Under the pieces are notes generated by a model, which was not told where the DNA came from, ran no database searches, and saw only the letters and a list, made by a program, of their open reading frames with translations. 64,000 nucleotides of DNA from Bacteroidota bacterium (lineage in GTDB: Bacteria; Bacteroidota; Bacteroidia; Palsa-965), in NCBI GenBank assembly GCA_013289095.1, contig JABDAO010000005.1, positions 303-64,302 of the forward strand, given 5' to 3'. Within the stretch, counting starts at the first letter, position 1, and every line of letters begins with the position of its first letter. The translations under genes were made by a program, and so were the position numbers. Below are positions 2,980-52,131 of this stretch, one piece after another.

Positions 2980-3251
2980 TCGGTGTAGGTATTGTTTTTT
3001 CAGTCGTAAAGGTAGGGGTTTTCATGAGTTGAAAGGGCATGATTCCGGTATATCGGTAATAAATCAGGATCCCGTCTATGCGCTGATCAAGAATAAATCT
3101 GTCGCAATAAATACACGGAGGCAAAGTCCTCTGAAGGAGAATGCCTGTTTTTTCTCCATCGATACATTTCCTGACAGATGTAATTCCGCAGAAGCACACA
3201 AGAAATGCGTGAGACAAGATACTGACATCAAGCAGGCTGCATAGGGATGCA

Positions 3252-3309
3252 AGAAACCCCTTCGTGTCTTCATTTCGGGTTGAAATGTAGCCAAGCGAAG
3301 GGGTTTTCT
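3252..3309 (-). terminator. candidate stem-loop downstream of the phasin-like genes
   Basis: The arms gaaaccccttcg (3252-3264) and cgaaggggttttc (3296-3309) can pair. On the minus strand a short T-rich run follows. The loop is long (about 31 nt), so support is weak. Confidence 0.3.
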
Positions 3310-3340
3310 TCAGGGATCAGTAAAAGAGAGGAATCTTGAA

Positions 3341-3946
3341 CTATTTATTGTCAGAATGCTTCCACCATTCAGAAGCCCAGCCTGAAAAGGCCTTCATGCT
3401 GTTCTGCTGAATCTGGTTGTAGTTGTGGAATTGTGACGAAATGGTTTCGGCAATTTTTTTGTTGAAATTCAAAGCAAGGCTCGTGTGTTTGTTATAAGAC
3501 TCGATAATGGCTTGAGTGCTTGTGTTCATTGTGTTGACAGCAGATTCGAAATTTTCCTTCACCAGCTTCAGTACCTTGTCCAGACCTTCGTTGTTGGCGC
3601 TGAATGTAGCCGATTCTTTGATTGCATCAATCAGTTTCGTGTTGTGCTCCAGGTACAGCTTAACTTGCGTATTGTAGCTGTCGAGTACATGATCGATTGT
3701 TTCTTCCGAAAGCTCAATTGATTTACCAAAGGTTTTGTTCATAGCGCTGAAAAGTGATGTGTTTTTATCTGACAACTGGAATTGGTCACGTATTCCATTG
3801 ACCAATACTTTATTTGATTCGAGAGCCTCGTTCAGAAGTCTGGTGTTGAGATGAATAATTTCTTTAACGGCTTCTTTTGATTTAAGGGCTGTGTCACCAA
3901 GAACGGTTTTCATGTTTTCGGTTTTCTCGCTTACATTGTTTTTCAT
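3341..3946 (-). CDS. phasin-like PHA granule-associated protein (hypothetical, helical)
   Basis: 201 aa with no enzymatic motif and an amphipathic-helix-like composition throughout. It sits directly upstream of, and co-directional with, phaC-phaB. The functional call is by context only. Confidence 0.55.
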   Translation of the reverse strand: MKNNVSEKTENMKTVLGDTALKSKEAVKEIIHLNTRLLNEALESNKVLVNGIRDQFQLSDKNTSLFSAMNKTFGKSIELSEETIDHVLDSYNTQVKLYLEHNTKLIDAIKESATFSANNEGLDKVLKLVKENFESAVNTMNTSTQAIIESYNKHTSLALNFNKKIAETISSQFHNYNQIQQNSMKAFSGWASEWWKHSDNK

Positions 3947-4015
3947 CGGTCTGTTTTAATTGAGGGTTAGGGGTTGAAAAGGAATTGTTTTAGGATTAAA
4001 TGATTCTTGTTTTTT

Positions 4016-4795
4016 TTATTTTGACACACTCACTTTTTTAGCGGGCTCGGTTTGTTTTGTTTTTTCGTCTACAGAGACAGCAACAAGCGGAGTTGCTGAA
4101 TTTTTATCGGCAGGAGAGCTGGTTTTGGCTCCTCCATTCGATGTGTCTTGTGCAGCCTGGAAAAGCCCTGACCAAAGTTTAAGATTAGAAGTGATCATGG
4201 AATTAAGTTGACTATCCAATGAACCGAGGAATTCTTTCCCTGTTTTTACGGTTTCGTTCAGATTTTTAAGATACTGTTCAGAAGTGTTTTGCATAGCGGC
4301 CCTCGATGATTCGAGATTGGTTTCCACATCTTTGGCCACTTTCGTCAGCATAGGTGCAAACGCATCCTGTGTGCTGGCAAACTGTGCCGAGAGTGTATCA
4401 ATATATTTCTGGTTCATGGTGCTGATCGACTCAGCCTGTTTGATATAAGTTTGTACGATTGCATTTATTTTTTCTTCGCAGAATGCAGGGTATGCGTTCC
4501 TGTTCCCGAACTGTTGAATAGTTTCGAAAGAGGATTTGGAAATCTGTGAAAGGCTTTCGAGGCTTTTTTGCATGATTTCATTGAGTATCTCAGAAATGCG
4601 AACCGGGCTTATCATTGCACCTGGTTTTATGTTCATGGTATTGTCAAGTGCGTTGTTATAGAGTTTGGTTGCAAAATCAAGCTGGTTTTCGTAAGCTTTG
4701 GCAACCGAAGACGCAGTGTCCTGAAACATTTTGATGGAGTTTTCTACGTGTTTCTGGAAACTGTTTTCCATGGGATTTTGTTTTTCAGCGCTCAT
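4016..4795 (-). CDS. phasin-like protein with Lys/Ala/Ser/Pro-rich C-terminal tail
   Basis: 259 aa. A helical body is followed by the tail GGAKTSSPADKNSATPLVAVSVDEKTKQTEPAKKVSVSK. It is the first gene of the phasin-phasin-phaC-phaB string. The functional call is by context only. Confidence 0.55.
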   Translation of the reverse strand: MSAEKQNPMENSFQKHVENSIKMFQDTASSVAKAYENQLDFATKLYNNALDNTMNIKPGAMISPVRISEILNEIMQKSLESLSQISKSSFETIQQFGNRNAYPAFCEEKINAIVQTYIKQAESISTMNQKYIDTLSAQFASTQDAFAPMLTKVAKDVETNLESSRAAMQNTSEQYLKNLNETVKTGKEFLGSLDSQLNSMITSNLKLWSGLFQAAQDTSNGGAKTSSPADKNSATPLVAVSVDEKTKQTEPAKKVSVSK

Positions 4796-11833: not shown

Positions 11834-12379
11834 CTAAATCTTTAGCGCTTTCCCCTGCGTATTGAACAAAACATTGTACGTGAGCGAAAAGCCGATGCTC
11901 CGGATAACCGTGAGCACCGCGAAATCACAAAGCATATTCATCCGTTTCCGGCGTTTGGAGATTTGTTCGGTAGTGGTATGGTTGATATAATAGGCCAGAG
12001 TCCCCACATCCATAGCCCTTGCAGTTGTTCTCAGACAATGATAGGCATCGGTGGTCCACGCAAAAACCGAAGTGCTGCCCGTAAATGCGGGCCCCAGGGC
12101 CTGGTTTCCATTCTTATATTTGTTTTCCCAGCTGATGGCCGGGTTCCAGTATTGATCATTTGCATGAGGGAAACGGGGTTTGAAGCCGTTGTCGTAGTGA
12201 AAGCTGATGCTTTCTACCGTGCCATCGAGCATGCCTGTAACAAGCATAGAGGAGCCGGTGATGAGGTAATCCTTCCATTTACGTTGAGCCAGCGCCGAGT
12301 CAGGGAATGAAAGGAGGAGAGAAAGGCAGCAAGCTGCAATCAGGTTTTTGGGAGCGGGCATCCCGTTTTTGTTTTTCAT
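11834..12379 (-). CDS. hypothetical exported/membrane protein
   Basis: I prefer the ATG at 12379, which gives the signal-like N-terminus MKNKNGMPAPKNLIAACCLSLLLSFPDSALAQ. There is a C-terminal hydrophobic segment. No family was recognised. Confidence 0.5.
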   Translation of the reverse strand: MKNKNGMPAPKNLIAACCLSLLLSFPDSALAQRKWKDYLITGSSMLVTGMLDGTVESISFHYDNGFKPRFPHANDQYWNPAISWENKYKNGNQALGPAFTGSTSVFAWTTDAYHCLRTTARAMDVGTLAYYINHTTTEQISKRRKRMNMLCDFAVLTVIRSIGFSLTYNVLFNTQGKALKI

Positions 12380-13362
12380 GGAAGGGAATTTAACGCATGA
12401 ACAGATTATAACAGAAGTAGATTCCGGGATTCCGGGTCTGTCGAAAAACAAATGAAGAGGGGACTAGCAAGGGATTTAGTCGTGCAGGAAGTTTTTTTCC
12501 TTACCCTGTATTGACTCTGCACACCCGTTAGGGGTGTCGAGCAACTGCTGAATCTGTAGCGTGGCATACAATGCGCTGCTACATTTCAAATTTACAAAAG
12601 ATTATATATATAATATATTTCAAAAGCGAAATAATTGTTAAGGTTGCAGGATCGTGTCTTTTGAATGTTATTTTGCCGCGCCCGACTCCACGATCATGCG
12701 CAGACTTTGCAGTTGTAACTGGTTCATCTGCTTAGAGGTTCCCTCCGTTCATCCTCTGATAGTGATAATCAGAAAGGATCAAAACAAGCTGATTTGTAGT
12801 TGTGAACACCAAAAGAAAAGGGAGCTGAAATACAAGGAACGTCTGTTGTTGGAAGAAGGAGGATTTAACCGAATTTGAATCATTTTTTTTTAGCGATAGA
12901 AACATCCTGAGTTGCTTGCATTTATCCCAGATTTCAAGACGTTCGAAAAGTAGAATCAAATTGCTAACTTTCGCTTGAACAACAAGCAAAGCCTATGCAT
13001 AAAATGGTGATTTCGATCCCTTCCCAGATTTTGGCTGAAATGTAAAAGTCTTGTTTAATCAAGACCTTTGAAGAATCAATTGGTGACTCCAGTAAAATGG
13101 AGATCCCGTATGGAATAATTATTGATCTAAAAGTACATTTCCTTGTTGTTTCATTTTTAGTCACTGTTCCGTAAATAGCGGCGCGGAGATAACTCTCCTC
13201 TCTAAATTCTTAAAGGGATAGGTTTTTTGTTGCCCAATCTCAATAAAAACAACGCTTTCATACAATATCGTCACGCTATGCTGATAATGACACACCATCT
13301 TCAGTATCCAACAATCAAATTATCAATGACTTAGAACAAGTTAGATGGAATTCTGCATTAGA

Positions 13363-13501
13363 TGGCTTGTGCGCTAATGCACAGTGTGTTAGGGTTTGCG
13401 CAGTCCCGATAGTCATCGGGATGGGTTATCCCGCGGGTTCGTTGTGCTGCTGGCCTTTTGAGCGCGAATGCCTGCTTCGAATGTATTCATATGCGGGATA
13501 A
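13363..13501. repeat. dispersed palindromic element, copy A (long form)
   Basis: tggcttgtgcgctaatgc...cccgatagtcatcggg...TTATCCCGC-[57 nt]-GCGGGATAA. By my hand alignment it differs from copy B (20881-21058) at about 8 positions over about 104 nt. The outer 9-bp arms are perfectly complementary. Confidence 0.8.
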
Positions 13502-13837
13502 AACAGGTTACTGCCCGGAAAATGACTTTGACCCAAGGTCTTTCGTGCAAAAAAGACAGTAGAATACGTCTGCCCTGACTTCCCGGATGTTGGCAAGAAG
13601 GCATCCGAAAAAATGAAAGGCAGGCATCCGGCTCAAAAAGGGATTTCAATAGTCAATGTCAAAAGCCGGGGGGGAGAGATCGAATGACTGCTGCATGTTG
13701 GTCCAGCCAGAGACACGTTTGCCTGAGGTGTCTGTTTCTCCTGATGAATGTTCAGGTACTGACAAATCATGTTCAGTAGTGCTTCATGTGTCTTCCTTGT
13801 TTCCGAACCCCGATCAGTTCATTTACGTTTACGAATG

Positions 13838-14095
13838 AAGCATAATGGATCATTATGCATGCATTTCAAACCAGTATACATGCAAAAAGGATCATTATGC
13901 ATGCATTTCAAACCAGTATACATGCAAAAAGGATCATTATGCATGCATTTCAATCCATTATTCAAGAATAAAGGATCATTATGCATGCATTTTAAATCAG
14001 TATGCAAGCATTTCAATCTATTATTCAAGGATAATGGATCATTATACATGTATTTCAAGTCATTTTGCATGCATAATGGGTGGAAATGATCCAAA
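13838..14095. repeat. tandem array 1 (21/42-bp period, about 12 x 21 bp)
   Basis: The first two 42-mers (13847-13888 and 13889-13930) are identical: ggatcattatgcatgcatttcaaaccagtatacatgcaaaaa. The gcatttca motif recurs at 13868, 13910, 13952, 13994, 14015 and 14057, i.e. in steps of 21 or 42. Confidence 0.9.
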
Positions 14096-14342
14096 TTGAT
14101 TTTTTTAACGGTAATTTGATGATAATGAGTGAACCCTACATAGGTTGGATGCAGCCTGATAAAGGTTGTAAGCTGCGTTTAACAGGTGTAAGCAACCAGT
14201 CACAGTTTAGAGAATAGACCCGATTTTTTCGACAGATTTAATCCCGGAAACGGTCTGCCGTTGTATTTCCCTGATTTTCAAAGAAAGCACAAAGGAATCA
14301 GGGGTGTTGTGTTGGTGAATGTTTGGTTCGATTATCCGTCAA

Positions 14343-14378
14343 GAAAAGAGGCTGTTTCATCAGAAACAGCCTCTTTGT
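14343..14378 (-). terminator. intrinsic terminator downstream of the ABC transporter gene
   Basis: agaggctgtttc-atca-gaaacagcctct: a 12-bp perfect stem, followed on the minus strand by TTTTCTT. It lies 20 bp past the stop at 14398. Confidence 0.65.
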
Positions 14379-14397
14379 CTTGTATCAGAAATAGGTT

Positions 14398-17300
14398 CTA
14401 GCTTTTTTTCTTCTTGGCCGGAAGCATTTCCCCGATCATCTCAAACAGATTCATCAGTTTCTTCAAAAGATCAAAATAAAGCGTGAAACCCAGAACGAGC
14501 GACATGCTCCAGATGACATACATATTGTACCAGTAGGTATCAAAAGCCCGTCCCATAAAGATCTTCCGGGGGGCAAAGAAGTGCGCACGGCCCATATTGT
14601 TTACCGGTTCCATAAATACAGGGTCGAGGCGTTGTACCAGCTCCCCATCCACTTCCAGGATCTTCTTGCTCAGATCGGTTTTGTTCATCACCAGATCGGC
14701 CAGGCTTTCGTTGTAATAATCGTTCTTGAGCTTGAGGAATTTGGTACGGGCAGCGGTATCCTTGCCGGTATCGTTCATGCGGGTGATGATGGCGTTGCGT
14801 TTATCGTCTTCCTGGTTATAGCGGTGTACATAATAAGTAGACAGCTTGTTCAGGTAGTCATGCAGGGATGTTACCACATCGCTGTTGAACTTATCGGGCG
14901 TAAGTTTGTCGAGATCGGCAAATTTCACGTTGTGGTTCCGTTTTACTTCCTTGCCTATTTCAAGGGAAAGCAGACTGAGGTCTTTTTCCAGTCCTTTTTT
15001 ATCGGCATTTTTCATGCAGATCTCGGCATCGTCAACCCTGGGGCGTATATCGGGCAGCCAGTAATCCTTTTTATAGGTGGCGGTGCTCTGGGCTTTTTCG
15101 AAGGCGTAGAAATTGCGTTCGTACATATTGTCCTTGAACTGGTCTACCGAGAGGGCTTCGAAAGCCCAACGCGAGGTCATGATTTCGCCCGGGAATGGCA
15201 CAATGCTTTGTGAAGTAAGCACCGGATTGAGCTTGTTGAATTTTACGATTACACCGCTCAATAACAACTGTGGGATAATCAGGAATGGGATCAGGATATA
15301 GATAGTCACGGCATTGTTGAAAGCTGAAGAAATATTCAGCCCCAGCATGTTTGCAAAACAGCTGGTCGAAAACAAAACAAACCAGTAATCCATCCACATG
15401 CCCTTAATACCCAGAATGGAGTTGCCAACCAGCAAAAAGGTCAAACTCTGAATGGCCGAAAGCACAAACATGATGGTGATCTTCGAAAAGAGATAGCTGC
15501 CCCGGCTGAGGTTCAGGAACTTTTCACGTTTTTGGATCTTACGGTCTTTAATGATTTCTTCGGCAGCAACGGTGAGGCCCAGGAAAAGGGAAACAACTAC
15601 CGACATAAACAGATATACCGGTATGTTTTCGTTATCGCGGTAGGTATAGCCCAATGTGTTCGATGCATCGGTGTTGTAAAAACGGATGAGGAACGCCAGG
15701 ATGAAGGCCAGAACCGGAGCTTCGAGTAAGTTTATTGACAAATATTGTTTGTCTGTAAGCTTGGCAAGTACATCGCGGGTGATGAATACTTTAAACTGTT
15801 TTATTTTGTTCGGAATATTGAACGTGCTTTCAGGAATCTCGGTAGAAGGGGCAAAAAATTCTGTCTTCCCTTCGATATGATCGCGGTACATATTGTTCCA
15901 CTCATTTGGAGAAACTTTACGTATACGCGTGAGTTCTCCATACTCATCGACCACCTTCGACTCGATAATATTGAAAATCTGTTCCGGGTTTACGTTACCA
16001 CAGGCAGGGCATTCGCTTTCGTTGCAGTTAACGTGGTTTACCCGGGTCTTGAAGTAGATCACGGCATCAACGGGGTTTCCGTAATAAATAGGATAACCGC
16101 CTACATCCAGGATCATCAGCTTGTCGAACATTTTGAAGATGTCTGACGAGGGCTGGTGGATAACCACAAATATCAGTTTGCCTTTGAGGGAAAGTTCCTT
16201 CAACAGGTCCATGATGTTTTCAGAATCGCGGGAAGAGAGACCTGATGTAGGTTCATCCACAAACATCACAAGGGGCTCGCGGATGAGCTCGAGTGAAATG
16301 TTCAGACGTTTGCGCTGGCCTCCCGAAATCGTTTTTTCAAGCGGGCTTCCAACCTTGAGGTCTTTTGCTTCGAACAAACCGATATCGGTGAGTACAGTGT
16401 CAACCCGTTTGATGAGGTCTTCTTCGCTCAGGTTTCCGAAACAAAGTTTTCCGTTGTAAAACAGGTTTTGGAATACGGTGAGTTCTTCAATCAGCAGGTC
16501 ATCTTGTGAAACGTGACCGATCACACCTTGTATTTTTTCTTTTTGGGTATGTATATTTATCCCGTTGATGAGCACTTCTCCACCCGATGGTGTTTCATTC
16601 CCATTCAGGACTGTAAGCAAGGTTGATTTACCAGCACCCGAGCCGCCCATAATACCGATAAGCTTGCCCGATTCTTCAGACATATTGATGTTACGCAGAC
16701 CAAGTTTCCCGCCTTTGAATTTAAATTCCAGGCTTTTTGCGGTAAACGTGATTTTTTTCTTGCTTTTGTCGGCCAGAAAAGAACTGATGATATCGCTGTA
16801 ATAGATAGGCTGAACCTTCGAACTCCGGATAGAAGAGCCCGGATTGAGGATATACACCTTGTCTTTTACAATGATCTGCCCGTTGAGGTATAATTCAGCA
16901 TCCCCAAAGTAATGCAGGAGATAGATGCCAACGCTGTTTATAGAAAGAACCCGGATCTGACCGATGACCGATTCATTGTAAATATGTTTGGTCTTCTCAA
17001 AGGGGTGTTGGGGTTTGTTGTTGATAATGAGGAACTGTTCCGAATCGGGTGTGTTTTCTTCCGGGTTCTGAACAAAGGCCATCATCCGGCGGAATTCTTC
17101 GGGGTCGATGTTAAATGTCTCGGCCACAGTCTGAACAAATTCCAGTTCCTGTTCTGAAATCTCATAACTCGAATAGATGAATTCGATGAGACGCGCAAGC
17201 ACAACCACTTTCTGGTGTTGTGTCAGTTCAGCGTTGATCTGGGTACAGATCTTAAGGACCTTTACGGAGTTGAGCGAAGTACGTTTTGCAGAACCGTCTT

Positions 17301-17490
17301 TCTTTTTGGAAACCTGGTGATGGGCTTCCATGAATTCATCAAACAGTTTGAGGTATTGATCAACCAGATCGGAGCTGAGCTGTTGTTTCAGAAAGGTCTG
17401 AACGATGGTACGTCCGTTGTTGGTCACGCCATCTACCTTAGCGATGATGGCGAACAACTGCATTAATGCCTTTAGTATCCGTTCACTCAT
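14398..17490 (-). CDS. ABCG-like ABC transporter (fused ATPase and ABC-2 permease) with a TerB-like/FHA-like N-terminal region and a long C-terminal extension
   Basis: 1030 aa. Walker A GGSGAGKST, signature SGGQRKR, Walker B MFVDEPTSGLS and H-loop VIHQPS. Six hydrophobic helices follow (about aa 590-760), then about 270 aa of soluble tail and a final TM helix. Confidence 0.9.
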   Translation of the reverse strand: MSERILKALMQLFAIIAKVDGVTNNGRTIVQTFLKQQLSSDLVDQYLKLFDEFMEAHHQVSKKKDGSAKRTSLNSVKVLKICTQINAELTQHQKVVVLARLIEFIYSSYEISEQELEFVQTVAETFNIDPEEFRRMMAFVQNPEENTPDSEQFLIINNKPQHPFEKTKHIYNESVIGQIRVLSINSVGIYLLHYFGDAELYLNGQIIVKDKVYILNPGSSIRSSKVQPIYYSDIISSFLADKSKKKITFTAKSLEFKFKGGKLGLRNINMSEESGKLIGIMGGSGAGKSTLLTVLNGNETPSGGEVLINGINIHTQKEKIQGVIGHVSQDDLLIEELTVFQNLFYNGKLCFGNLSEEDLIKRVDTVLTDIGLFEAKDLKVGSPLEKTISGGQRKRLNISLELIREPLVMFVDEPTSGLSSRDSENIMDLLKELSLKGKLIFVVIHQPSSDIFKMFDKLMILDVGGYPIYYGNPVDAVIYFKTRVNHVNCNESECPACGNVNPEQIFNIIESKVVDEYGELTRIRKVSPNEWNNMYRDHIEGKTEFFAPSTEIPESTFNIPNKIKQFKVFITRDVLAKLTDKQYLSINLLEAPVLAFILAFLIRFYNTDASNTLGYTYRDNENIPVYLFMSVVVSLFLGLTVAAEEIIKDRKIQKREKFLNLSRGSYLFSKITIMFVLSAIQSLTFLLVGNSILGIKGMWMDYWFVLFSTSCFANMLGLNISSAFNNAVTIYILIPFLIIPQLLLSGVIVKFNKLNPVLTSQSIVPFPGEIMTSRWAFEALSVDQFKDNMYERNFYAFEKAQSTATYKKDYWLPDIRPRVDDAEICMKNADKKGLEKDLSLLSLEIGKEVKRNHNVKFADLDKLTPDKFNSDVVTSLHDYLNKLSTYYVHRYNQEDDKRNAIITRMNDTGKDTAARTKFLKLKNDYYNESLADLVMNKTDLSKKILEVDGELVQRLDPVFMEPVNNMGRAHFFAPRKIFMGRAFDTYWYNMYVIWSMSLVLGFTLYFDLLKKLMNLFEMIGEMLPAKKKKS

Positions 17491-17565
17491 AAAAATAGCC
17501 CTGCGCTAACAGAGGAGATAAGCAGTGGTGGATGCGAGTACGTGGTACTGGTGTTGGAAACGTTC

Positions 17566-18000
17566 TTATTGTTTGAAACCAATTAAAATCACTGCACAGC
17601 CCGATGAATTTCCGGAAGCAGGGTTCAATTTTGCCTCAATAATACAATCGAGTGTAGAGTTGACTTTAAAATCCCAGTAGGGGGCATTTTTTTCAGCCGT
17701 ATTGGTGAACAGAACATTTCGGTCTTTATCAAAGAGTGTAAAGACCAGGTTCCCATCTGAAAGACCGCTGCATCCGGCAATGCGGTAGGTGGCGCCACCA
17801 TAAAAAGTGGTCTGGAACTCTGCTGCCTGGTCGTTCAGGAGCAGCGACCGGTATGACTGGCCATCGCTTACAAAGGGCAGTTTTACGTGTTTATTACAGA
17901 TTTTCGCAATGGTATCGCACTGAGACAAGGAAACCTTGCTGCAGGAAAAGCCAACGACAAAAAGGAACATGATTTTAATGAAGGACATCGAATTTCGCAT
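17566..18000 (-). CDS. hypothetical secreted protein
   Basis: I prefer the ATG at 18000 (MRNSMSFIKIMFLFVVGFSCSKVSLSQ, a signal peptide). This removes the overlap with the upstream lipoprotein gene. Beta-rich and Cys-containing. No family was recognised. Confidence 0.6.
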   Translation of the reverse strand: MRNSMSFIKIMFLFVVGFSCSKVSLSQCDTIAKICNKHVKLPFVSDGQSYRSLLLNDQAAEFQTTFYGGATYRIAGCSGLSDGNLVFTLFDKDRNVLFTNTAEKNAPYWDFKVNSTLDCIIEAKLNPASGNSSGCAVILIGFKQ

Positions 18001-18037
18001 AGCGTTTACTTTTCTGGGCTGTTTTAGAATGTCTTGA

Positions 18038-18934
18038 TTATTGAACGATGCTTTTACGGATGGCCGCAATTTTATCGGTGATGGCCTGAACCTGTTCGGC
18101 AGTGATCTTTACCTCGGTCTTGCTGTTGATGATGGTCAGCTGCTTATCGGGTTGGGTGGTTGGTTCAACAAACGTGTATTTCATTTCAATATTATCGAAA
18201 AGCGTGGCGAGTTCTTTGAACTGGGTGATCAGGCCTGCATATTCGGGTTTGTTGAACGAGGCGAGGAGTTTTACAATGCTGTTTACCGAAGTATGCTGCT
18301 CACCAATGCGGTTCTGTACATCCTGGCTTGGTTTTATCTTTAAGATGGCCGTTGCAAAGTGCATGCTTTCAATCCAGCCACCGGCCAGGATCAGGGCTCC
18401 CACCTCACTGCGTTTGCTGTCTTTCAGATACGCATCGCTGGCACGGTAAGCATCGGATACAAGCGAAATGATGGAGTCTTTTTTACCGATGTTTGCTTCA
18501 AAACGTTTCATTAATTTCTCATCGAATGAACTGGCTATACCAAGCGCATCACCGATTTTCTTGACCGATGCAAAAAAGGCCAGGGCCTGGTTGTTCTCGC
18601 TGTAGATGGTAAGGTAACCAAGATCGGCGCCGTAAATGCCGAGGTTCAGCGCACGGTCGTAAGTGCTCTGATAATTAGAGGCTTTGGATGGTTCGTTGAG
18701 CAGTTCTTTCGAAAAAGGCGCCCCACTCTGATTGATGAGCATGGCGGTCTGTACCGGAGAAGGAATGCTGAATATCTGTCCGTTAATGCTTACAATCGGG
18801 ACGGCAGTGCTGTCTTTCGGTTCTTCCCCGTGCTCATTTGCCTGGTTTTTGGAGTTTCCGCATCCTGCGACGATCAACGAAGCCACAGCCATACAATAGA
18901 TTGGTCGGCTAATATTCAGGAACTTAAAGGCCAT
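18038..18934 (-). CDS. hypothetical lipoprotein (helical)
   Basis: 298 aa with the lipobox-like N-terminus AVASLIVAGCGNSKNQ. First gene of a co-directional string with 17566-18000 and the ABC transporter. Confidence 0.7.
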   Translation of the reverse strand: MAFKFLNISRPIYCMAVASLIVAGCGNSKNQANEHGEEPKDSTAVPIVSINGQIFSIPSPVQTAMLINQSGAPFSKELLNEPSKASNYQSTYDRALNLGIYGADLGYLTIYSENNQALAFFASVKKIGDALGIASSFDEKLMKRFEANIGKKDSIISLVSDAYRASDAYLKDSKRSEVGALILAGGWIESMHFATAILKIKPSQDVQNRIGEQHTSVNSIVKLLASFNKPEYAGLITQFKELATLFDNIEMKYTFVEPTTQPDKQLTIINSKTEVKITAEQVQAITDKIAAIRKSIVQ

Positions 18935-19200
18935 ATCCGAAGAGGGTTAATGTTAAAAAGCGATGCAAGTAATAAATAAATAATGAGTTTTCAAAAATAG
19001 TACTTTTTTCACTACATCTTCAAAAACTTTCGCGAATGTAGGCAATTTATCCCGCATTATGCATCAGGGAGAGCCCTCGGCTCCGGGGGAGGCCTATTCG
19101 CTTCAATACAGCAGGAAGTTTGGATGATCAGCCTCGCCGATGCGACTCTTCGTCTATTTCGGGTGAAGGTGTGGGAGATTAAGAATATCTTTGAGCCACT

Positions 19201-20442
19201 ATGGAAACCGGAACTGCCAATTACCCGATGACGGCCAAGACTCAATACGGCCTGGAGGATTTACTTGCCGATGAACTTAAAAGGCTTGGCGCCAGCGCTA
19301 TTGTGAAACACAACCGAGCGGTTAGTTTTGAAGGCGACAAGGGCTTTATGTACAAAGCCAACCTTTGTTTGCGTACGGCATTGAGGATACTCAAACCAAT
19401 TAAGACCTTCAATATTGTCAATGAGGAGGGGTTGTACCGCGAAATCGGAAAAATTAATTGGGAGGATTATATGGGCGTGGATGATACCCTGGCCATAGAT
19501 TGTTCCCTCAATTCTGATTTCTTTACACATTCGCAGTTTCTGGCCCAGAAAGCGAAAGACGCGGTAGTAGATCAGTTCCGGAACAGACACGGAAAACGCC
19601 CATCGGTAGACCTGGACCAACCTACACTCAGGATAAACCTGCACATCTTCAAAAATGCCTGTACCGTTTCGCTCGACAGCTCGGGTGAATCGCTTCATAA
19701 ACGCGGTTATCGTACACAAACCAATCTGGCCCCGATCAACGAAGTACTTGCCGCAGGGCTGATCCTTCTCAGTGGCTGGGATAAACGCAGCCCGCTTATC
19801 GACCCAATGTGTGGTTCGGGCACGATCCTCATTGAGGCTGCCATGATTGCCAATAATATCCCATCGGGCTATTTCAGGAAACGGTTTGGGTTTGAATCCT
19901 GGAAAGATTTTGAACCTGCCCTTTGGGACACGATCTTCAATGCAGCAATCGACAAAATATCCGAAGAAAATCAACAAATAACAGGAGTCGAAATTATTCC
20001 CGAAATTGCAGAAATGGCCAAAGCCAATGTACTGGGATCAAAGGTAGAAGATACCGTAAAAATAGTTTGTTCCTCTTTTCATGATTTCGAGCCCTGGGAG
20101 CATATCACCAAAACAACCGGCAAACCGATTGTGATCATGAACCCTCCCTACGGTGAACGCCTCGAGCCCGAAAATATCAAGGAGTTGTATAAAAGCATAG
20201 GCGATACACTCAAGAAAAAGTACGCCGGTTGTGATGCCTGGGTCATTACCTCCAATGTGGAGGCCATGAAAAGCCTTGGGATCCACGCAACGCGCAAGAT
20301 CAGTCTCTATAACGGACCGCTGGAATGTAAATTCCTTAAATTCTCAATGTATGAGGGGACCAGGAAAGTGCATAAGCTGAAAAAAGAAACTCCGAACGAA
20401 GAGAACGCTGCGGGTGAAGAGCGGATTGAAGAAACGCCGTAA
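19201..20442 (+). CDS. THUMP-domain class I SAM-dependent RNA methyltransferase (RlmL/YpsC-like)
   Basis: 413 aa. SAM-binding motif DPMCGSGTILIEA and catalytic NPPYGERL. The N-terminal THUMP-like region begins GLEDLLADELKRLGA. The start could instead be the ATG at 19228. Confidence 0.88.
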   Translation: METGTANYPMTAKTQYGLEDLLADELKRLGASAIVKHNRAVSFEGDKGFMYKANLCLRTALRILKPIKTFNIVNEEGLYREIGKINWEDYMGVDDTLAIDCSLNSDFFTHSQFLAQKAKDAVVDQFRNRHGKRPSVDLDQPTLRINLHIFKNACTVSLDSSGESLHKRGYRTQTNLAPINEVLAAGLILLSGWDKRSPLIDPMCGSGTILIEAAMIANNIPSGYFRKRFGFESWKDFEPALWDTIFNAAIDKISEENQQITGVEIIPEIAEMAKANVLGSKVEDTVKIVCSSFHDFEPWEHITKTTGKPIVIMNPPYGERLEPENIKELYKSIGDTLKKKYAGCDAWVITSNVEAMKSLGIHATRKISLYNGPLECKFLKFSMYEGTRKVHKLKKETPNEENAAGEERIEETP

Positions 20443-20524
20443 GCTTTGAAGCCCACCCTGTATCCAGCTGGATTGCTGGTGAGCAGAGCAAGTGCTCATT
20501 CAGAATGTATCGGTTTGGAGGGGT

Positions 20525-20749
20525 CTATTTGCAATACGGATCAATGGCTTCAATACCGGCAGTATCCAGAAATTCTGTGATCTCCATATATTTAGCGCGT
20601 GCATAAGGGTCACGTGCCGGGCGTGTTTCAAATTCAAGCGCAGTCATTTGTTCAACATCCGTGCGGATTCCGAGTATCTTCCCGCTTTTGATGCTTCCAT
20701 CTTTCATGTACACGGTTGCATTATTTCCAATAATTTCGTTTGTGATCAT
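20525..20749 (-). CDS. hypothetical small protein
   Basis: 74-aa ORF with an ATG start and non-repetitive composition. No family was recognised. Confidence 0.4.
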   Translation of the reverse strand: MITNEIIGNNATVYMKDGSIKSGKILGIRTDVEQMTALEFETRPARDPYARAKYMEITEFLDTAGIEAIDPYCK

Positions 20750-20880
20750 CTCTATCCTGTTTTTTGTGGATTAACTTGAAACAAAAATAAGCCCTGGATA
20801 GGGAATCTATGTTAGGGAATTATGAAGGAAATGACAAGGGTGGTGGGAGTGATTTGGTTAAACCCAGCTTGTGCATGAGG

Positions 20881-21058
20881 TGGCTTGTGCGCTAATGCCC
20901 GTCAAGACCGGCTCAACCAGGTCTTCTGTCGGCCGGGCGGGCACCGTGTGTTAGGATTTGCGCGGCCCCCGATAGTCACCGGGATGGGTTATCCCGCGGG
21001 TTCGTTGTGCTGCTGGCCCTTTGAGCGCGAATGCCTGCTTCTAATGCATGCGGGTTTA
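20881..21058. repeat. dispersed palindromic element, copy B (long form with a 44-nt internal insertion and a degenerate right arm)
   Basis: It has the same tggcttgtgcgctaatgc start and the same TTATCCCGCgggttcgttgtgctgctggcc..gagcgcgaatgcctgcttc core as copy A. There is extra ccgtcaagaccggctcaaccaggtcttctgtcggccgggcgggc after position 18. The right arm has decayed to gcgggttta. Confidence 0.8.
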
Positions 21059-21263
21059 ATGGAGTTTCGCCCGTTAATTGTTTTAAATCACCTGAATAAC
21101 GCAGATAATTGTCAAATAACGTGAGATGGGTTGTAGAAGAGAAGGCATCAACGAACGAGGATTTTAATTTTTCGATTTTACTGGATATTACTCTATATGG
21201 AGTTAAATATCCTCTTGGATCAAATCGTATCATTTGGTGAAAATATCGGATTCCTGATTTCAT
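21059..21263 (-). pseudogene. truncated N-terminal fragment of a gene interrupted by element copy B
   Basis: The minus-strand ORF 20976-21263 starts with protein-like sequence (MIRFDPRGYLTPYRVISSKIEKLKSSFVDAFSSTTHLTLFDNYLRYSGDLKQL). It then reads straight into the repeat, ending ..EAGIRAQRASSTTNPRDNPSR, the same peptide that copy A generates. The N-terminus resembles the start of small nucleotidyltransferase-associated proteins, but this is from memory only. Confidence 0.4.
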
Positions 21264-22142: not shown

Positions 22143-22153
22143 CCTGGTGAAAT

Positions 22154-22232
22154 GATTTGGGATTTACGATTTGGGATTTAAAAATGAATTCAAATTTTCG
22201 AATCCCCAATCGTAAATCCCGATTCCCAAATC
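22154..22232. repeat. long imperfect inverted repeat between the rhomboid and ABC-F genes
   Basis: The left arm gatttgggatttacgatttgggatt (22154-22178) pairs with aatccccaatcgtaaatcccgattcccaaatc (22201-22232), with a 6-7-nt bulge. The loop is taaaaatgaattcaaattttcg. It lies inside the spurious N-terminal extension of ORF 22157. Confidence 0.6.
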
Positions 22233-22255
22233 TTTATTCCTTATCTTCGCGCCCC

Positions 22256-30735: not shown

Positions 30736-31247
30736 ACGGTCCTAAAATAAGAATGTCTGTACACTGTTCATTATAAAATAACTTCTTTTTGTCTGACCGG
30801 TTCCGTGTGTCTGGCAACAGGTTTGAGTAAAAGGGCCCGAGGTGGGATTGCGAATTTAGAATAATAAACTGAAAGAGCACCAAAACAGCGTTTAATTTTT
30901 CGATGCCTATATGGCTGACTGTTAGCCACTGACATCCGGATCTGGATCCTGAAACCGATTCCTTTTTTCGTGTAAATATTTGATAGTTAGTTGTTTGAAT
31001 GAAACCCCAGCCCCCTGTTTTTGCTTGTCTGGAAGAAAAATTCCAGCATCATTATAGATATCAGACCGCATTGCAAGAAAAACTACCCGAAAACGAAGAT
31101 CCCCGCAGCATTCCATGCCCCTATTTAATCACCCCGGTTTTTCAAAAAGCCCTCAGCATGACAGGCGCCGAAACTCTTTTCTCGATTCCGGTCATACTCA
31201 ACGCTCGTTTTGTCAGCTGGAAGGGTTTCTTTTTATAATTTTGAAAG

Positions 31248-31538
31248 ATGTCGAAACACAATGAACAAAGTCTGAAAGAGGTGCTCGCCGAAATGCTGGA
31301 TGCTTACAAGCTACGCGGAAGGATGGAAGAGTTGAAGCTCATGTCGTCGTGGGGGGCCATTATGGGGCCGATGATACAAAAACGGACTGTCGACATCAGC
31401 ATCCGGAACAAAATCTTGTATGTTAGGCTTGAATCTGCTGCTTTGAGAGAAGAACTATCCTACAGCAAGGAAAAACTCATTCAACGTTTAAACGAGGAAG
31501 CCGGTTCTGAAGTGGTTTTGCAAGTAGTATTTATCTGA
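31248..31538 (+). CDS. DUF721/DciA-like small protein
   Basis: 96 aa. It matches the pattern LKEVL..ML..Y.L......L...W..I.G......T.......L.V...S...R.EL......L...LN. The family assignment is from memory. Confidence 0.75.
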   Translation: MSKHNEQSLKEVLAEMLDAYKLRGRMEELKLMSSWGAIMGPMIQKRTVDISIRNKILYVRLESAALREELSYSKEKLIQRLNEEAGSEVVLQVVFI

Positions 31539-31548
31539 CTTTCGGCCT

Positions 31549-32463: not shown

Positions 32464-32510
32464 CGGCCAGATCTGCCTGAAAAGCCATTAACCTCTTTTC
32501 ATTTCCAAAC

Positions 32511-32540
32511 AAAAAGCTGCCTATTTGGGCAGCTTTTTTG
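32511..32540. terminator. bidirectional intrinsic terminator between convergent genes
   Basis: aaaaagctgcc-tatttg-ggcagctttttt: a 7-bp GC-containing stem flanked by an A-run and a T-run. It lies between the stop at 32463 (+) and the ndk stop at 32608 (-). Confidence 0.65.
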
Positions 32541-32607
32541 TTTGAAGGAAGATTTTATAAAACGAGATCTTCGTAGCTTATTTTATTCCAATACTGCGGG
32601 GCCTTGA

Positions 32608-33209: not shown

Positions 33210-33535
33210 TTGTTGAAATGGCTTGGATTGAAAATAATGCACGTTTTGTCAAAATGATCCCTTAATTCATGCAAAATGAGTTGAATTGAATCTATACTGG
33301 ATTGAAACGTGTTGATATTGGATGGAAATGTATTCATTCTGATTCTTTATGCATGCAAAATGAGTTAAAATGAATGCATCTTGAACTGAAATGAATGCAT
33401 AATGGATTGAAATGTATGCATAATGGATTGAAACTACCAGATAAAGGTTTGAAATGAATTGATATTGGATTGAAATCAATTCAAACTGGATTGAAATGAA
33501 TAAAAAATGATTTAAAATGAAGATAATGGGATTTT
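33210..33535. repeat. tandem array 3 (21-bp period, about 13-15 units), homologous to array 1 but in reverse orientation
   Basis: The motif (t)tgaaa(t/c) ends at 33266, 33287, 33308, 33329, 33350, 33371, 33392, 33413, 33434, 33455, 33476, 33497 and 33518, exactly 21 bp apart. Units such as gcataatggattgaaatg are the reverse complement of catttcaatccattat in array 1. Confidence 0.9.
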
Positions 33536-33713
33536 TGTTGGCTGGTTTCGATTAATTCATTTGATAATCAATGAGATGCATGGTAAGCCGGTCGCCAAGC
33601 CTTCAGATTAATCCCCCATGCCGGCAGAAGAATTAGGAGCGTTTGCCTCTCCACTGAACGATGCGCCTCATAAACCCAACATGAACAGTAGAAACGTAGT
33701 GCACTACTGTTCA

Positions 33714-33816
33714 GTGCGTTTGGATTTTGTGCGCTGGATTTGGGTTATCCCGCTGCTCCTGAGAGCTGGCGGCCTTTTCAGAGCGTTAGCCAGCTTCAAC
33801 TGAAAAATGCGGGATA
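33714..33816. repeat. dispersed palindromic element, copy C (short left part, intact hairpin)
   Basis: gtgcgtttggattttgtgcgctggatttggg-TTATCCCGC-tgctcctgagAGCTGGCggccttttcagagcgttaGCCAGCTtcaactgaaaaat-GCGGGATAA. The inner 7-bp stem is perfect here, whereas copy A has a T-T mismatch at the same place. Confidence 0.75.
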
Positions 33817-33847
33817 AAGTCGTAAATTAGCCGCCTAAACCCCCTTT

Positions 33848-34867: not shown

Positions 34868-34930
34868 CAGACAGGCCGCGGACGAAGCATCGGGGCGCTT
34901 TTTTTTGCTCCTTACATTGGTAAAGTACAG

Positions 34931-50008: not shown

Positions 50009-50207
50009 GAGCAGGCTCCCCGCGACTCACCCCCCGGCCCCCTCTCTGCAAGCAGAGAGGGGGAGCCTTTGTGCTGAATTATTCAAATGAATTCAAATGA
50101 ATTCATTTGAATAAAACTCCCATCGTTTTGTCTGGATTTTTTTCTCCTCCTCTCTCGCAGAGAGCCCTTTTGTTTGTAATGTGTAAGTTTAAATAAAAAC
50201 GTATGCT

Positions 50208-50669
50208 ATGAAAACGACACAACTTAAGGACTTTACTGGAGAGAATATCTATGTAGGGTTCGATGTTCACAAATCAAGCTGGAAAGTGACTATAGGGCAT
50301 CTCTAATAACCCCTTCCAAACATTCCCTCTTCTTGGGAGAGGGTCAGGGAGAGGTCAAGAAAACGGGGTTATTAGAGATGCCCTATATTAACAGACCATG
50401 CATCTCACAAGAATTATGCACAGGAACCCTCTGTTGAAAAGCTAGTCAACTATTTACAAACTAATTTTGCAGGAGGCACCTATCTTAGCGCTTAGGGGGC
50501 AGGTTTCTGTGGATTCTGGATACACCGGGAATTAAGCAAAAATGGTGTTAATTCGATTATAGTTAGCCCCGCTGATATTCCAACAACACAAAAGGAACAA
50601 GTGAAAAAGGAAGACAAGCGAGACAGCAATAAAATTGCGAAGGCACTTCGCAACGGCGACCTCAAGGGC
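50208..50669 (+). pseudogene. IS110-family (DEDD) transposase, decayed N-terminal remnant
   Basis: MKTTQLKDFTGENIYVGFDVHKSSWKVTI | 97-bp insertion | LTDHASHKNY..GGTYLSA*GAGFCGFWIHREL..IVSPADIPTTQKEQVKKEDKRDSNKIAKALRNGDLKGIY. There is an in-frame stop, and the reading frame ends exactly at the left arm of element copy D. The C-terminal two-thirds of the protein is absent. Confidence 0.75.
50291..50387. mobile_element. 97-bp MITE-like palindromic insertion inside the IS110 transposase remnant
   Basis: Perfect 23-bp terminal inverted repeats, tatagggcatctctaataacccc and ggggttattagagatgccctata, flank 51 bp with an internal ccctct..agaggg hairpin. It splits the conserved KVTI|L region of the transposase. 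Confidence 0.65.
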
Positions 50670-50745
50670 ATTTATCCCGCATTATTCATTCGGAATTGGC
50701 CTTTTGTGCGCGAATGCCTGCTTCTACTGCATAATGCGGGATTAG
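50670..50745. repeat. dispersed palindromic element, copy D (hairpin core only)
   Basis: tTTATCCCGCATTATtcattcggaattggccttttgtgcgcgaatgcctgcttctactgcATAATGCGGGATtag. The arms extend to 12-13 bp, and the inner ggccttttg.gcgcgaatgcctgcttc block is shared with copies A and B. Confidence 0.8.
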
Positions 50746-50929
50746 CCTGTTACACGGCTAATGCAAAATTCCGGTTTATTGGGCCAATGCCTTTTCATGT
50801 AACTGGAGACATTTCCGAACGGTATCGATATAAATGGCACAAATTGTCCTGCCGGAGAAGTTAGTTGTCCTGAAAGAGACCTTTGTTGTTCGGAGGTGCT
50901 GCCTTTAAAAGGCAGCTCATTCCCTGGGG

Positions 50930-51500
50930 TTCCCGACTGTTCCCTTAGTTTCCCGACACGTTCCCCAAGCTTCCCGACATGTTCCCCAAGCTTCCCGACA
51001 CGTTTACTAAGGTTCCCGACACGTTCCCCAAGCTTCCCGACATGTTCCCCAAGCTTCCCGACACGTTTACTAAGCTTCCCGACATGTTCCCCAAGCTTCC
51101 CGACATGTTCCCTTAGGTTCCCGACATGTTTGCTAAGCTTCCCGACATGTTCCCTTAGATTCCCGACATGTTTGCTAAGCTTCCCGACACGTTTACTAAG
51201 CTTCCCGACATGTTTGCTAAGCTTCCCGACACGTTTACTAAGCTTCCCGACATGTTCCCTTAGTTTCCCGACATGTTTGCTAAGCTTCCCGACATGTTTG
51301 CTAAGCTTCCCGACACGTTTACTAAGCTTCCCGACATGTTCCCTTAGATTCCCGACACGTTCCCTTAGGTTCCCGACATGTTCCCTAAGGTTCCCGACAC
51401 GTTCCCTTAGGTTCCCGACATGTTCCCTAAGGTTCCCGACACGTTCCCCAAGGTTCCCGACATGTTCCCCAGGGTTCCCGACACGTTCCCCGAGGTTCCT
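50930..51500. repeat. tandem array 4 (about 27 x 21 bp, unit TTCCCGACAYGTTNNNNWAGN)
   Basis: tcccgac starts at 50951, 50972 ... 51434, 51455, 51476, i.e. in exact 21-bp steps. There are four main unit variants (..cacgttccccaagc, ..catgttcccttagg, ..catgtttgctaagc, ..cacgtttactaagc). The first unit is 20 bp. Confidence 0.92.
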
Positions 51501-52131
51501 TATCGAGAGTCTGTTCAATAAAAGGATTTGGAGATGCTATTGAAAGCATTTTCCCGGAGAAGTTTGTTGTCCTGGCGGAGAAGATAGATGTCCTCCCGGA
51601 GGAGACCATGGTTGTCCTGCGTTTCTGCTGTTCATTTTGGGATTATATGCACTAATTCTTTTCCCCCGCTTTATCACCCCATACTCCCAAACTGATATTG
51701 GCCATATTATGGGGATAGTAATTCCAGATTCTTTAGTCCACCTTAGCAACATCAAAGAAAAAAAGAACGCATGATAGAGGGCTTTAAAAAGAGTCAGTCA
51801 CTCCAATCATACCCGTTTACAGGCATGCCACAGCCTTATTTGTTGAATACGTTTCGATTAATTTAGCTTTCATTTTTTTTAATTCCTACTAGGATTTGAT
51901 ATTTTTTGTGTTTATCTTGTCATCAGAAAAGACAAATACCTGGGCTTAAGTCTAAGCATACCCGTTCTACAGGCATACAATCCGTTCGTCCCCGTTTTCT
52001 TTTTTAAACAGTGTTTTTGTAGCATGGCGTACATTCTCTCTGTGATTGCGCACACCTCACAGACCGGAATGAAGTAGCGTACCCAATCCTTCAACTGTTT
52101 TACACACATTAACACACAAAACCAAAACCAC

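Follow-up and report, generated by a model that had tools for sequence, protein, structure and literature searches.

Small dispersed hairpin repeats and 21-bp minisatellites in intergenic DNA of a Bacteroidia genome

A non-coding stretch and its counterparts in relatives

The window analysed here (the whole stretch of DNA, 64 kb in length) contains a lineage-specific non-coding stretch at 12452-14397, without assigned strand, bordered on one side by a 205-aa ORF and on the other by the 3' end of an ABC-TerB transporter gene. An earlier note, made from the sequence alone, had seen no credible gene in this desert, and we arrive at the same result: its ORFs are at most 106 aa long, mostly use TTG or GTG starts and have no Pfam match. 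The desert holds a copy of a hairpin element and an array with a 21-bp period. Across the window we confirm four element copies (c13, c20, c33 and c50) and three such arrays (at the c13, c33 and c50 loci), all at the positions given by the note. Ordinary housekeeping genes flank all three array loci.

Comparison with related genomes, in which amino-acid identity amounts to 86-90% for the ABC transporter and 72-76% for NrnA, shows that the repeats are specific to this lineage and lie where synteny breaks. A tblastx search of the desert against the relatives yields nothing; there, the transporter gene is immediately followed by YkuD/DivIC genes and the desert has no counterpart. The RlmL..ABC segment, bracketed by c13 and c20 in the window, is an intact block with different neighbours in L019-L022, and the 2-kb desert is absent; this comparison of gene order has to be read with the caveat that the contig is metagenome-assembled and possibly mis-joined at these very repeats. 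The NDK-NrnA spacer, about 820 bp long here, measures about 200 bp in L016 and L018. In these two and in L017 the c33 site is empty, and the proximal promoter blocks are retained on both sides of the c33 insertion. Element and arrays are absent from the relatives, based on a profile HMM search for the element in about 115 kb of their DNA.

Anatomy of the hairpin element

The four copies, all in the same orientation, form one repeat family; a repeat finder and nhmmer (E 1e-19 to 1e-23) detect no further ones in the 64-kb window. All share a core of 73-76 nt, in which a 9-bp inverted repeat (TTATCCCGC...GCGGGATAA) encloses an interior of 55-58 nt. A scan with the pattern TTATCCCGC-N(40-70)-GCGGGATAA matches 13426-13501 and 33745-33817, where shuffled sequences give an expectation of 0. 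For the hairpin loop the note gave 57 nt; c13 in fact has 58 nt and c33 has 55 nt. These arms, short terminal inverted repeats, are perfect in c13 and c33 and match at 8/9 positions in c50 and 7/9 in c20. Among c13, c33 and c50 the core arms are identical at 17-18 of 18 positions whereas the interior reaches just 53-64%, with two conserved boxes (GGCCYTTT and GCCnGCTTC). Such conservation of arms over interior is typical for terminal repeats of non-autonomous elements. A 5' extension of one or two variable hairpins is optional and present in three copies; the element ranges in size from 73 to 191 nt and has no coding capacity. The note had counted four full copies, but only three are full and c50 consists of the core only.

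The full form is represented by c13 (13349..13501, plus strand), which comprises a P1 hairpin at 13354-13381 (stem TGCATTAG, a 12-nt loop and CTAATGCA), a conserved segment at 13382-13403, a P2 hairpin at 13404-13421 and the core at 13426-13501, bounded by TTATCCCGC and GCGGGATAA. The c20 copy (20869..21059, plus strand) is 92-95% identical to c13, has a 38-nt stretch identical to it and contains an additional hairpin of 44 nt, inserted at about 20899-20942. It is decaying: the right arm is degenerate (GCGGGTTTA, 7/9), and there are two unpaired substitutions in P2 and one in P1. These uncompensated stem mutations, together with the degenerate arm, argue against strong selection on structure. 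In c33 (33683..33817, plus strand) the core at 33745-33817 has perfect arms, the P1 hairpin at 33683-33712 has a stem (GAACAGTAG/CTACTGTTC) unlike that of c13, and P2 is absent; its 3' end stops about 10 nt short of a conserved TAAATTAG box upstream of the NrnA gene. The c50 core (50672..50744, plus strand) has the arms TTATCCCGC and GCGGGATTA, and its stem reaches 14 bp.

Consensus folds of the four copies on either strand yield the outer stem alone, with no conserved interior fold and no covariation. The P1 hairpin structure is kept between c13 and c33 despite the differing stem sequence: a MAFFT alignment gives one compensated pair and alignment of the stems by hand gives 3/8, though such counting of pairs on a hand-specified structure is underpowered with n=4 sequences. 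A stem that is conserved with a changed sequence hints at selection for the fold. Inspection of the sequence at the edges of both the core and the full form reveals no target-site duplication in any of the four copies. We also considered the core as protein-coding, given that a frame (YPA...AG*) is open in three copies; this was rejected because the copies differ at first and second codon positions.

Searches of public collections return nothing that resembles the element. Rfam 15 at gathering score finds two tRNAs across the window and nothing else (c50 included), and relaxed E values (<=1 to <=10) over c13, c20 and c33 add no credible match. The TTATCCCGC/GCGGGATAA ends do not fit the integron attC pattern R''(RYYYAAC)...R'(GTTRRRY), and there is no integrase among the window ORFs scanned. 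The note had recognised neither a known RNA family nor a CRISPR or integron site in the element, and this is supported. Pattern scans of genome contigs (12 loci, L001-L012) and metagenome contigs (L013, L014) give only chance matches in GC-rich or coding DNA, without the outer stem, the source genome evidently being in neither collection; the pattern does not occur in the viral contigs. BLAST gives no match for the c13 element or the c50 locus among plasmids, nor for the c13 locus among phages, and ORFs overlapping elements and arrays have no exact entry in the protein collection.

The 21-bp arrays and the IS110 remnant

The array in the desert is an AT-rich minisatellite (13838..14095, no strand) with a period of 42, made up of two 21-mers: A (GCAnAAnGGATCATTATGCAT) and B (GCATTTCAAnCCAnTATnCAn), the latter nearly the reverse complement of the former. 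TRF reports it at 13838-14010/14079 (period 42/21, score 262). That its first two 42-mers are identical, as noted earlier, holds in the register 13849-13890 = 13891-13932. It is homologous to the AT-rich 21-bp minisatellite of the c33 locus (33261..33529, no strand; unit TGAAATGAATGCATAATGGAT, about 8.7-13 units; TRF period 21/63/84, scores 131-196), which is placed 5' of the element, between two divergent promoters. The third array, at c50 (50846..51620, no strand), is richer in GC: diverged 21-nt-periodic units flank a homogenised core, found by TRF at 50930-51490 (period 21, 26.8 copies of TTCCCGACAYGTTnnnnnAGn, score 709). For c13 and c50 the copy numbers rest on one assembly, as the contigs of an independent Logan assembly stop there.

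The array units fall into two unrelated families, AT-rich (c13 and c33) versus c50, which have the strict 21-bp phasing in common. Within each unit there is a short palindrome, either ATGCAT or ACATGT/ACACGT, along with an invariant block of 11-13 nt beside a variable one. Units follow each other head to tail, without the unique spacers between repeats that define a CRISPR. There are no 21-bp arrays in the 126 kb of other Bacteroidota loci searched, pattern scans of viral contigs for both array units find no match, and our literature search on 21-bp repeats in Bacteroidetes found no report.

At c50 an ORF with a TTG start (50742-51518, minus strand) reads as heptads of the form V-G-K-L-(G/S/R)-(E/K)-(H/R), with V, G and L unchanged throughout and a synonymous CTT/CTA change in Leu. 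This frame matches 133 coiled-coil Pfam models and ERVGKV-type repeat proteins, yet a simple coiled-coil test also accepts 9-12% of random 21-mers. It has no orthologue in the relatives, and the whole periodic region is not spanned by any single frame. A heptad-repeat coiled-coil ORF, present or former, may underlie the c50 array and would account for its 7-codon period.

Directly 5' of c50, in the same orientation, lies a pseudogene of an IS110-family (DEDD) transposase (50207..50671, plus strand) that corresponds to residues 9-126 of a 359-aa relative and has an in-frame stop. Its truncation point is the left edge of c50, and the C-terminal two thirds of the transposase are nowhere in the window. 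The pseudogene is split by an 89-nt MITE (50295-50383) with 19-nt terminal repeats (GGGCATCTCTAATAACCCC) and a TATA duplication, unrelated to the element; the genome hence harbours classical MITEs. With the transposase fragment rebuilt, homologues were found, and the related IS110 elements in L024 and L025 show 64-68% amino-acid identity. The relative in L025 (IS110 839-2765) has a long 3' non-coding region. Comparison of our element with the non-coding regions of the IS110 elements in L024/L025 by nhmmer and blastn gives no similarity, and their 5' non-coding ends are unalignable as well. These two IS110 loci, which come from an unrelated sample, hold no copy of the element.

The distance between element and array is 337 nt at c13, about 155 nt at c33 and 185 nt at c50. 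In a null model that weights by non-coding length, the probability that an array lies within 340 nt of an element is about 0.19; the joint chance for three arrays is p about 0.006, or about 0.03 if the two homologous arrays are counted once. These figures are suggestive, at a tiny n. The note had listed a composite unit of element and array among the possible explanations. The loci speak against this: the DNA between element and array has no similarity from locus to locus, the array lies 3' of the element in c13 and c50 and 5' of it in c33, the c50 array is unrelated to the others and c20 has no array nearby. Its suggestion that the element seeds the arrays is not borne out either, since none of the array units derives from the element. 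The only flank homology found between array loci is a 25-nt motif (TTTGTTG..GTTTCGATTAATT) 3' of both the c33 and the c50 array. Taken together, the evidence does not show element and arrays to be one functional unit, and their pairing is weak. What remains of the interpretation in the note is an element that behaves as a non-autonomous mobile or REP-like dispersed non-coding repeat, missing in relatives. Coincidence accounts only moderately well for the position of all three arrays within 340 nt and for the 21-bp period in both families.

Origin of the repeats and comparison with known systems

In our judgement the chance is a little above even that the element is a lineage-private dispersed hairpin repeat of the MITE/ERIC-like kind, and that the minisatellites are independent of it, both accumulating in permissive intergenic DNA. 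The invariant inverted ends and boxes are most likely recognition sequences for a transposase or recombinase encoded elsewhere in the genome and acting in trans; alternatively, they may have been fixed in a master copy. Copies would insert into non-essential intergenic DNA, or reach it through recombination, and decay afterwards; homologous recombination among them would rearrange the chromosome. The 21-bp arrays would be separate minisatellites that grow via slippage or unequal exchange, with the AT-rich family itself present at two loci (c13 and c33). Element and arrays would pile up as lineage-specific additions in the few permissive stretches: between divergent promoters, at rearrangement junctions and beside IS debris. 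From the four copies visible in the window we infer mobility and the genome-wide copy number; a parent transposon or transposase with matching ends does not occur within the window.

Bacterial MITE/ERIC-type repeats are small intergenic palindromic repeats such as Correia/NEMIS and ERIC/IRU. Like these, the element is short (75-190 nt), non-coding, intergenic, lineage-restricted and present in several copies; its ends are better conserved than its interior, it can fold into a long hairpin, and its size variants arise from internal hairpin insertions. Small size, lack of coding capacity, multiple copies and presence or absence between genomes, as expected of a MITE, are all found (4 copies in the 64-kb window against none in about 115 kb of relatives). 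It differs in that the inverted ends are just 9 bp, there is no target-site duplication, no parent IS lies in the window and a one-sided 5' extension is common to three copies. REP/BIME elements, which have RAYT transposases (PMC3733652), are likewise dispersed extragenic palindromes, and IS110-family elements are known to insert into REP-type dispersed palindromes (PMC1525189); here an IS110 remnant abuts c50. REPs are, however, 20-40 nt long with a GTAG or CGTC head, whereas our core has 73-76 nt, begins with TTATCCCGC and bears neither head; no RAYT/Y1 transposase is present among the window ORFs scanned against Pfam.

If a MITE/ERIC-like repeat with independent minisatellites is indeed what we see, it would be a family of small dispersed repeats, hitherto unseen and private to the lineage, together with minisatellites, in an uncultured Bacteroidia genome, and would help to account for assembly breaks, inflated intergenic regions and the local loss of synteny in this group. 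It would also be a further case of hairpin repeats near minisatellites in Bacteroidota, after BrickBuilt and PgRS of P. gingivalis. No new mechanism would follow, as insertions of this kind are familiar. The finding would weigh more if the element were a guide-RNA-like module or the 21-bp arrays were binding sites of a specific protein.

Porphyromonas gingivalis has two MITEs, BrickBuilt (23-nt repeats) and MITEPgRS/464 (41-nt repeats), which are species-specific, always intergenic and minisatellite-bearing (PMC4596501); BrickBuilt is the nearest published parallel. Phylum, spacer-less arrays of ~21-23-nt units with conserved and variable halves, dispersal at several loci, frequent incompleteness and nearby IS remnants are common to both. 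One might read the loci as a composite MITE of this type, with the element as leader or tail, the 21-bp array as centre, and the loci rearranged or partly deleted. The array within 340 nt of three of the four elements, the dispersal of the homologous c13 and c33 arrays, and the 25-nt motif 3' of two arrays point that way, and most such MITE copies in P. gingivalis are without one or both flanks (PMC4596501). We nonetheless regard this as improbable: outside element and array the loci show no homology, and there is no common leader or tail and no IS5-type terminal repeat; the position of the element relative to the array is not fixed, the order being reversed at c33 though the element keeps its orientation; and c20 is arrayless while the arrays comprise two unrelated unit families, c50 standing apart. 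The IS5-type end of BrickBuilt (GAGACCTTTGCA) is not enriched (3 matches against 5.9 expected). A match to the BrickBuilt terminal repeat GAGACCTTTG at 50876 was rejected as not above chance. Comparably improbable is a multi-copy structured ncRNA gene, for instance an orphan seekRNA or bridge RNA (PMC11187229, PMC11208160) of an IS110/IS1111-type element, in which boxes and outer stem would serve as scaffold and the stretches of variable sequence (17 nt and 11-14 nt) as programmable loops. The element resembles these modules in size (seekRNAs are 82-96 nt; PMC11187229), in its conserved scaffold with hypervariable segments, in the P1 stem kept in c13 and c33 with different sequence and in the transposase remnant immediately 5' of c50. 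The L025 relative has a long 3' non-coding region, and stand-alone copies are published for the downstream small RNA of an IS110 element (ISPpu9 ssr9; bioRxiv 10.1101/2025.01.17.633520). Against it, the interior fold is inconsistent, the outer stem lacks covariation, the stem mutations in c20 are uncompensated, Rfam has no match, the upstream regions have no Bacteroidota-type promoter box (TAnnTTTG) in common, and the related IS110 non-coding regions show no similarity, which is a weak test given the unalignable 5' ends. Moreover, the c50 transposase cut at residue 126, with the 5' part of the element missing, resembles a deletion junction rather than a native 3' region.

Smaller still is the chance of a functional scaffold (9-bp outer stem and GGCCYTTT/GCCnGCTTC boxes) with hypervariable loops, akin to an orphan guide RNA of IS110 type or a recombination site in single-strand DNA, that would act with the 21-bp phased arrays as a new recombination or chromosome-organising locus and move blocks such as RlmL..ABC. 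We also find it very unlikely that the arrays are iteron, centromere or regulatory protein-binding arrays or phased-bend DNA, where 21 bp would equal two helical turns, place sites on one helix face and leave the hairpin element as an associated cis site. Strict phasing in two unrelated families, the short palindrome and invariant 11-13-nt block in every unit and the c33 array between divergent promoters would fit; two unit families would, however, require two different proteins, and relatives with the same flanking genes have no arrays. The iteron or centromere reading of the note is unsupported: the Pfam-scanned ORFs include no rep or par gene and no dedicated DNA-binding gene beside any array, and replication-origin signals (a DnaA-box cluster, a GC-skew switch) are absent. 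An oriC was rejected: DnaA-box-like sites number 16, the same as expected (16), the arrays of the deserts contain none, and the GC skew has no origin-type sign switch at the deserts. Hardly probable at all is an artefact of the metagenome assembler that made the arrays or the joins across elements. The 38-nt stretch identical in c13 and c20 would agree with it, as would the ends of the Logan contigs from the same sample, which fall inside elements or at arrays (14101, 20934, 33699, 33789 and 51591), that is, at the c13 and c50 arrays and within c20 and c33; such ends are, however, expected of multi-copy sequence. The elements also have unique flanks and are not identical to one another; over 21 kb the Logan contigs match the window at 100% identity, and one of these contigs (L026) spans the entire c33 array and recovers it base for base.

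Copies and anatomy of the hairpin element

Pattern matches at 13426-13501 and 33745-33817, where none are expected by chance, confirm the hairpin element that the earlier note had described. By repeat finding, alignment and nhmmer, the 64-kb window contains four copies, all on the + strand and named after their kb position: c13 (13349-13501), c20 (20869-21059), c33 (33683-33817) and c50 (50672-50744). The number of four copies therefore stands, but not the claim that all of them are full, since c50 comprises the core only. In c20 the right arm has degenerated. Also the hairpin loop, given before as 57 nt, measures 58 nt in c13 and 55 nt in c33.

What all copies share is a core of 73-76 nt, TTATCCCGC-[55-58 nt]-GCGGGATAA. 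Among the three distinct versions 17 to 18 of the 18 arm positions are identical, against just 53-64% identity in the interior; the chance of 18/18 arm identity would be ~1e-4 if identity were 60%. Two boxes within the core are invariant (GGCCYTTT and GCCnGCTTC). Almost no resemblance among c13, c33 and c50 remains in the first 17 nt past the left arm or in the last 11-14 nt ahead of the right arm. Consensus folding of either strand yields the outer stem alone and no shared interior fold. Because this outer stem never varies, it provides no covariation evidence.

A 5' extension is common to c13, c20 and c33. It starts with hairpin P1 (12-nt loop), of which the stem reads TGCATTAG/CTAATGCA in c13 versus GAACAGTAG/CTACTGTTC in c33; between these, one compensated pair is found by MAFFT and 3/8 when the stems are aligned by hand. 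P1 is followed by a conserved stretch, CAGTGYGTTWGGRTTT..GCGC, and a second hairpin (TCCCGAT-AGTC-ATCGGGA) is present in c13 and c20 alone. The latter copy is 92-95% identical to c13 and carries a 44-nt hairpin insertion, three uncompensated stem substitutions and a degraded right arm. c20 looks like a decaying copy rather than a sequence kept by selection.

Genomic setting, relatives and classification

The window makes up almost the whole of a 64.6-kb contig that belongs to the metagenome-assembled genome of an uncultured member of the Bacteroidota (Bacteroidia). The loci are surrounded by ordinary genes, either housekeeping or T9SS cargo (recF, ribH, rlmL, ndk, FKBP isomerases, recA, the trp operon, DAHP synthase and Por_Secre_tail proteins). 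The stretch 12452-14397, in which no credible gene had been seen before, indeed contains no ORF larger than 106 aa, and it gives neither a Pfam match nor similarity to relatives. Elsewhere, ORFs of 205 aa (11834-12451, - strand), 304 aa (31549-32463, + strand) and 544 aa (59976-61610, - strand) are without Pfam match; the one of 304 aa is kept in relatives, adjoining dciA. Between the rhomboid and ABC-F genes, nested inverted repeats of GATTTGGGATTTAC units are found (22151-22240; 32-nt arms, 84% complementary).

Protein identity to the nearest other genomes is 72-76% for the NrnA-type DHH protein and 86-90% for the ABC-TerB transporter. The spacing of the divergent ndk and nrnA genes (ATG to ATG) is ~200 bp in three relatives (L016, L017, L018) versus ~820 bp in the window. 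Here the promoter-proximal blocks beside both genes are conserved, and the ~620 bp extra between them consists of array, spacer and element c33. Profile HMMs of the core and the full form detect no element copies in ~115 kb from the relatives (L016-L022), nor do profile HMMs in two IS110 loci of an unrelated sample (L024, L025), and TRF reports no 21-bp arrays in any of these loci.

Rfam 15 returns two tRNAs only at gathering score, and no credible match over c13, c20 and c33 at permissive E-values. Phage, plasmid and viral collections give no match, and a pattern scan of genome and metagenome collections gives chance matches only. The element is best read as a new member, private to this lineage, of the well-known class of small palindromic dispersed repeats. 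It resembles MITEs and ERIC in its conserved inverted ends, small size, non-coding nature, presence in more than one copy, decay, and sites that are empty in relatives. It differs from a strict MITE in having no target-site duplication and no parent element in the window. The finding is real and its interest modest; what novelty is left lies in the proximity of elements to arrays and in a core built as a scaffold with variable loops.

Four relatives (L019-L022) have an unbroken four-gene block, RlmL-298aa-144aa-ABC, with YkuD/DivIC genes directly after and NUDIX or Opp genes before it. In the window this block, there RlmL-298aa-167aa-ABC/TerB, lies between c20 and the geneless stretch with array and c13, and compared to L020 it is placed on the opposite side of the TPR-ribH region. 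Thus c13 and c20, the most similar copies and in direct orientation (13349-21059), flank a native block that has other neighbours here than in the four related genomes. The block may have been relocated by excision and re-integration via recombination between dispersed copies, which would require a correctly joined contig; otherwise, the altered neighbours would be due to an assembly mis-join.

Contigs of an independent assembly (Logan, SRR8422484) are 100% identical to the window over 28608-33699, 33789-36867, 14101-20934 and 51591-57658. Every recovered contig end lies within an element or at the edge of an array, which is what one would predict for stretches whose k-mers recur elsewhere in the genome. 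The contigs break on both sides of c33, yet no 31-mer of this version recurs in the other copies of the window, which suggests that further copies exist outside it. The suspicion that the arrays are assembly artefacts can be dismissed for the one near c33, which a Logan contig (L026) spans completely and identically; this confirmation is limited to c33 among the three arrays.

The 21-bp arrays and their relation to the element

TRF confirms the three 21-bp-phased arrays proposed earlier. They are located at 13838-14095 (near c13, period 42/21), 33261-33529 (near c33, period 21) and 50930-51490 (near c50, period 21, 26.8 copies), and are the only high-scoring tandem repeats of the window, with periods of 21 or multiples throughout. 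The arrays are minisatellites. Those near c13 and c33 are homologous (65-70% identity) and AT-rich, each 21-mer having a conserved part with ATGCAT as well as phased A/T tracts. The unit pair near c13 is a quasi-palindrome, so array orientation is uninformative. Translations of the AT-rich arrays are rich in Cys/His/Tyr and broken by stops, with no codon periodicity in the variation; on these sequence features the family is regarded as non-coding.

The c50 array is unrelated to the other two, its unit being an invariant 13-nt block followed by a variable 8-nt block (TTCCCGACAYGTT + 8 variable nt). One minus-strand frame reads V-G-K-L-(G/S/R)-(E/K)-(H/R), a canonical a/d heptad with variation at surface positions only and a synonymous Leu change, and the ORF of 258 aa matches 133 coiled-coil Pfam models and ERVGKV-type repeat proteins. 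Counting against coding, a simple coiled-coil test is passed by 9-12% of random 21-mers, the ORF begins with TTG, and the periodic region is not covered in full by any one frame. If this array is coding, its period is simply seven codons. A replication-origin reading of the arrays was rejected, given that neither clustered DnaA boxes nor a switch in skew are present.

Evidence is mostly against element and array forming one composite unit. The four intergenic regions lack similarity outside elements and arrays, the array is on the 3' side of the element at c13 and on its 5' side at c33, and the c20 locus has no array. Neither does the element appear to seed the arrays, as their units are not derived from its sequence. 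Under a length-weighted null, one array lies no farther than 340 nt from an element with p ~0.19, and all three do so with p ~0.006; the latter value leaves some association to explain. Elements and arrays could both be lineage-specific additions that survive only in few permissive stretches, which would bring them into proximity. The c50 stretch additionally holds an IS110 pseudogene and a classical MITE. A 25-nt match, TTTGTTG..GTTTCGATTAATT (exact over the 13-mer), is present at just two places in the window (33533-33557 and 51838-51863), 3' of the c33 and c50 arrays, at marginal significance.

For a spacer-less array of ~21-23 nt adjoined by hairpin or unique flanks, the nearest published analogue in the same phylum is BrickBuilt/PgRS of Porphyromonas gingivalis (PMC4596501). 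The leader, tail and IS5-type ends that define it are, however, absent at the loci described here.

The IS110 remnant beside c50

The IS110-family transposase pseudogene (50207-50671) retains residues 9-126 only, with the N-terminal DEDD domain and an in-frame TAG stop. It is interrupted by an 89-nt MITE (50295-50383) with perfect 19-nt terminal inverted repeats, GGGCATCTCTAATAACCCC, flanked by a TATA duplication (50291-50294 / 50384-50387). In silico removal restores the frame (...KVTI/LTD...) as in homologues. This is a second, classical MITE family in the genome. A perfect 17+17-nt palindrome (50079-50114), TTATTCAAATGAATTCA / TGAATTCATTTGAATAA, closely follows the terminator hairpin of DAHP synthase, upstream of the remnant.

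The transposase frame leaves its homologues exactly at the left arm of c50 (...LKGIY / PALF... versus VPS.KTLEDR), and the missing 230 residues are not encoded anywhere in the window. IS110/IS1111 elements encode seekRNAs or bridge RNAs of 82-96 nt (PMC11187229), and stand-alone copies exist of the small RNA downstream of ISPpu9 (bioRxiv 10.1101/2025.01.17.633520). No similarity to the element exists in the related IS110 of L024/L025 (64-68% identity, 680-nt 3' non-coding region). This argues weakly against the element being the 3' guide-RNA part of an IS110, a comparison of low weight because the 5' non-coding ends are likewise unalignable. On L025, an unrelated Bacteroidota contig, two IS110-family copies (839-2765 and 2833-4757) stand in tandem and are 97.6% identical, each with a 680-nt 3' non-coding region in which two 87-nt direct repeats mark a candidate guide-RNA region.
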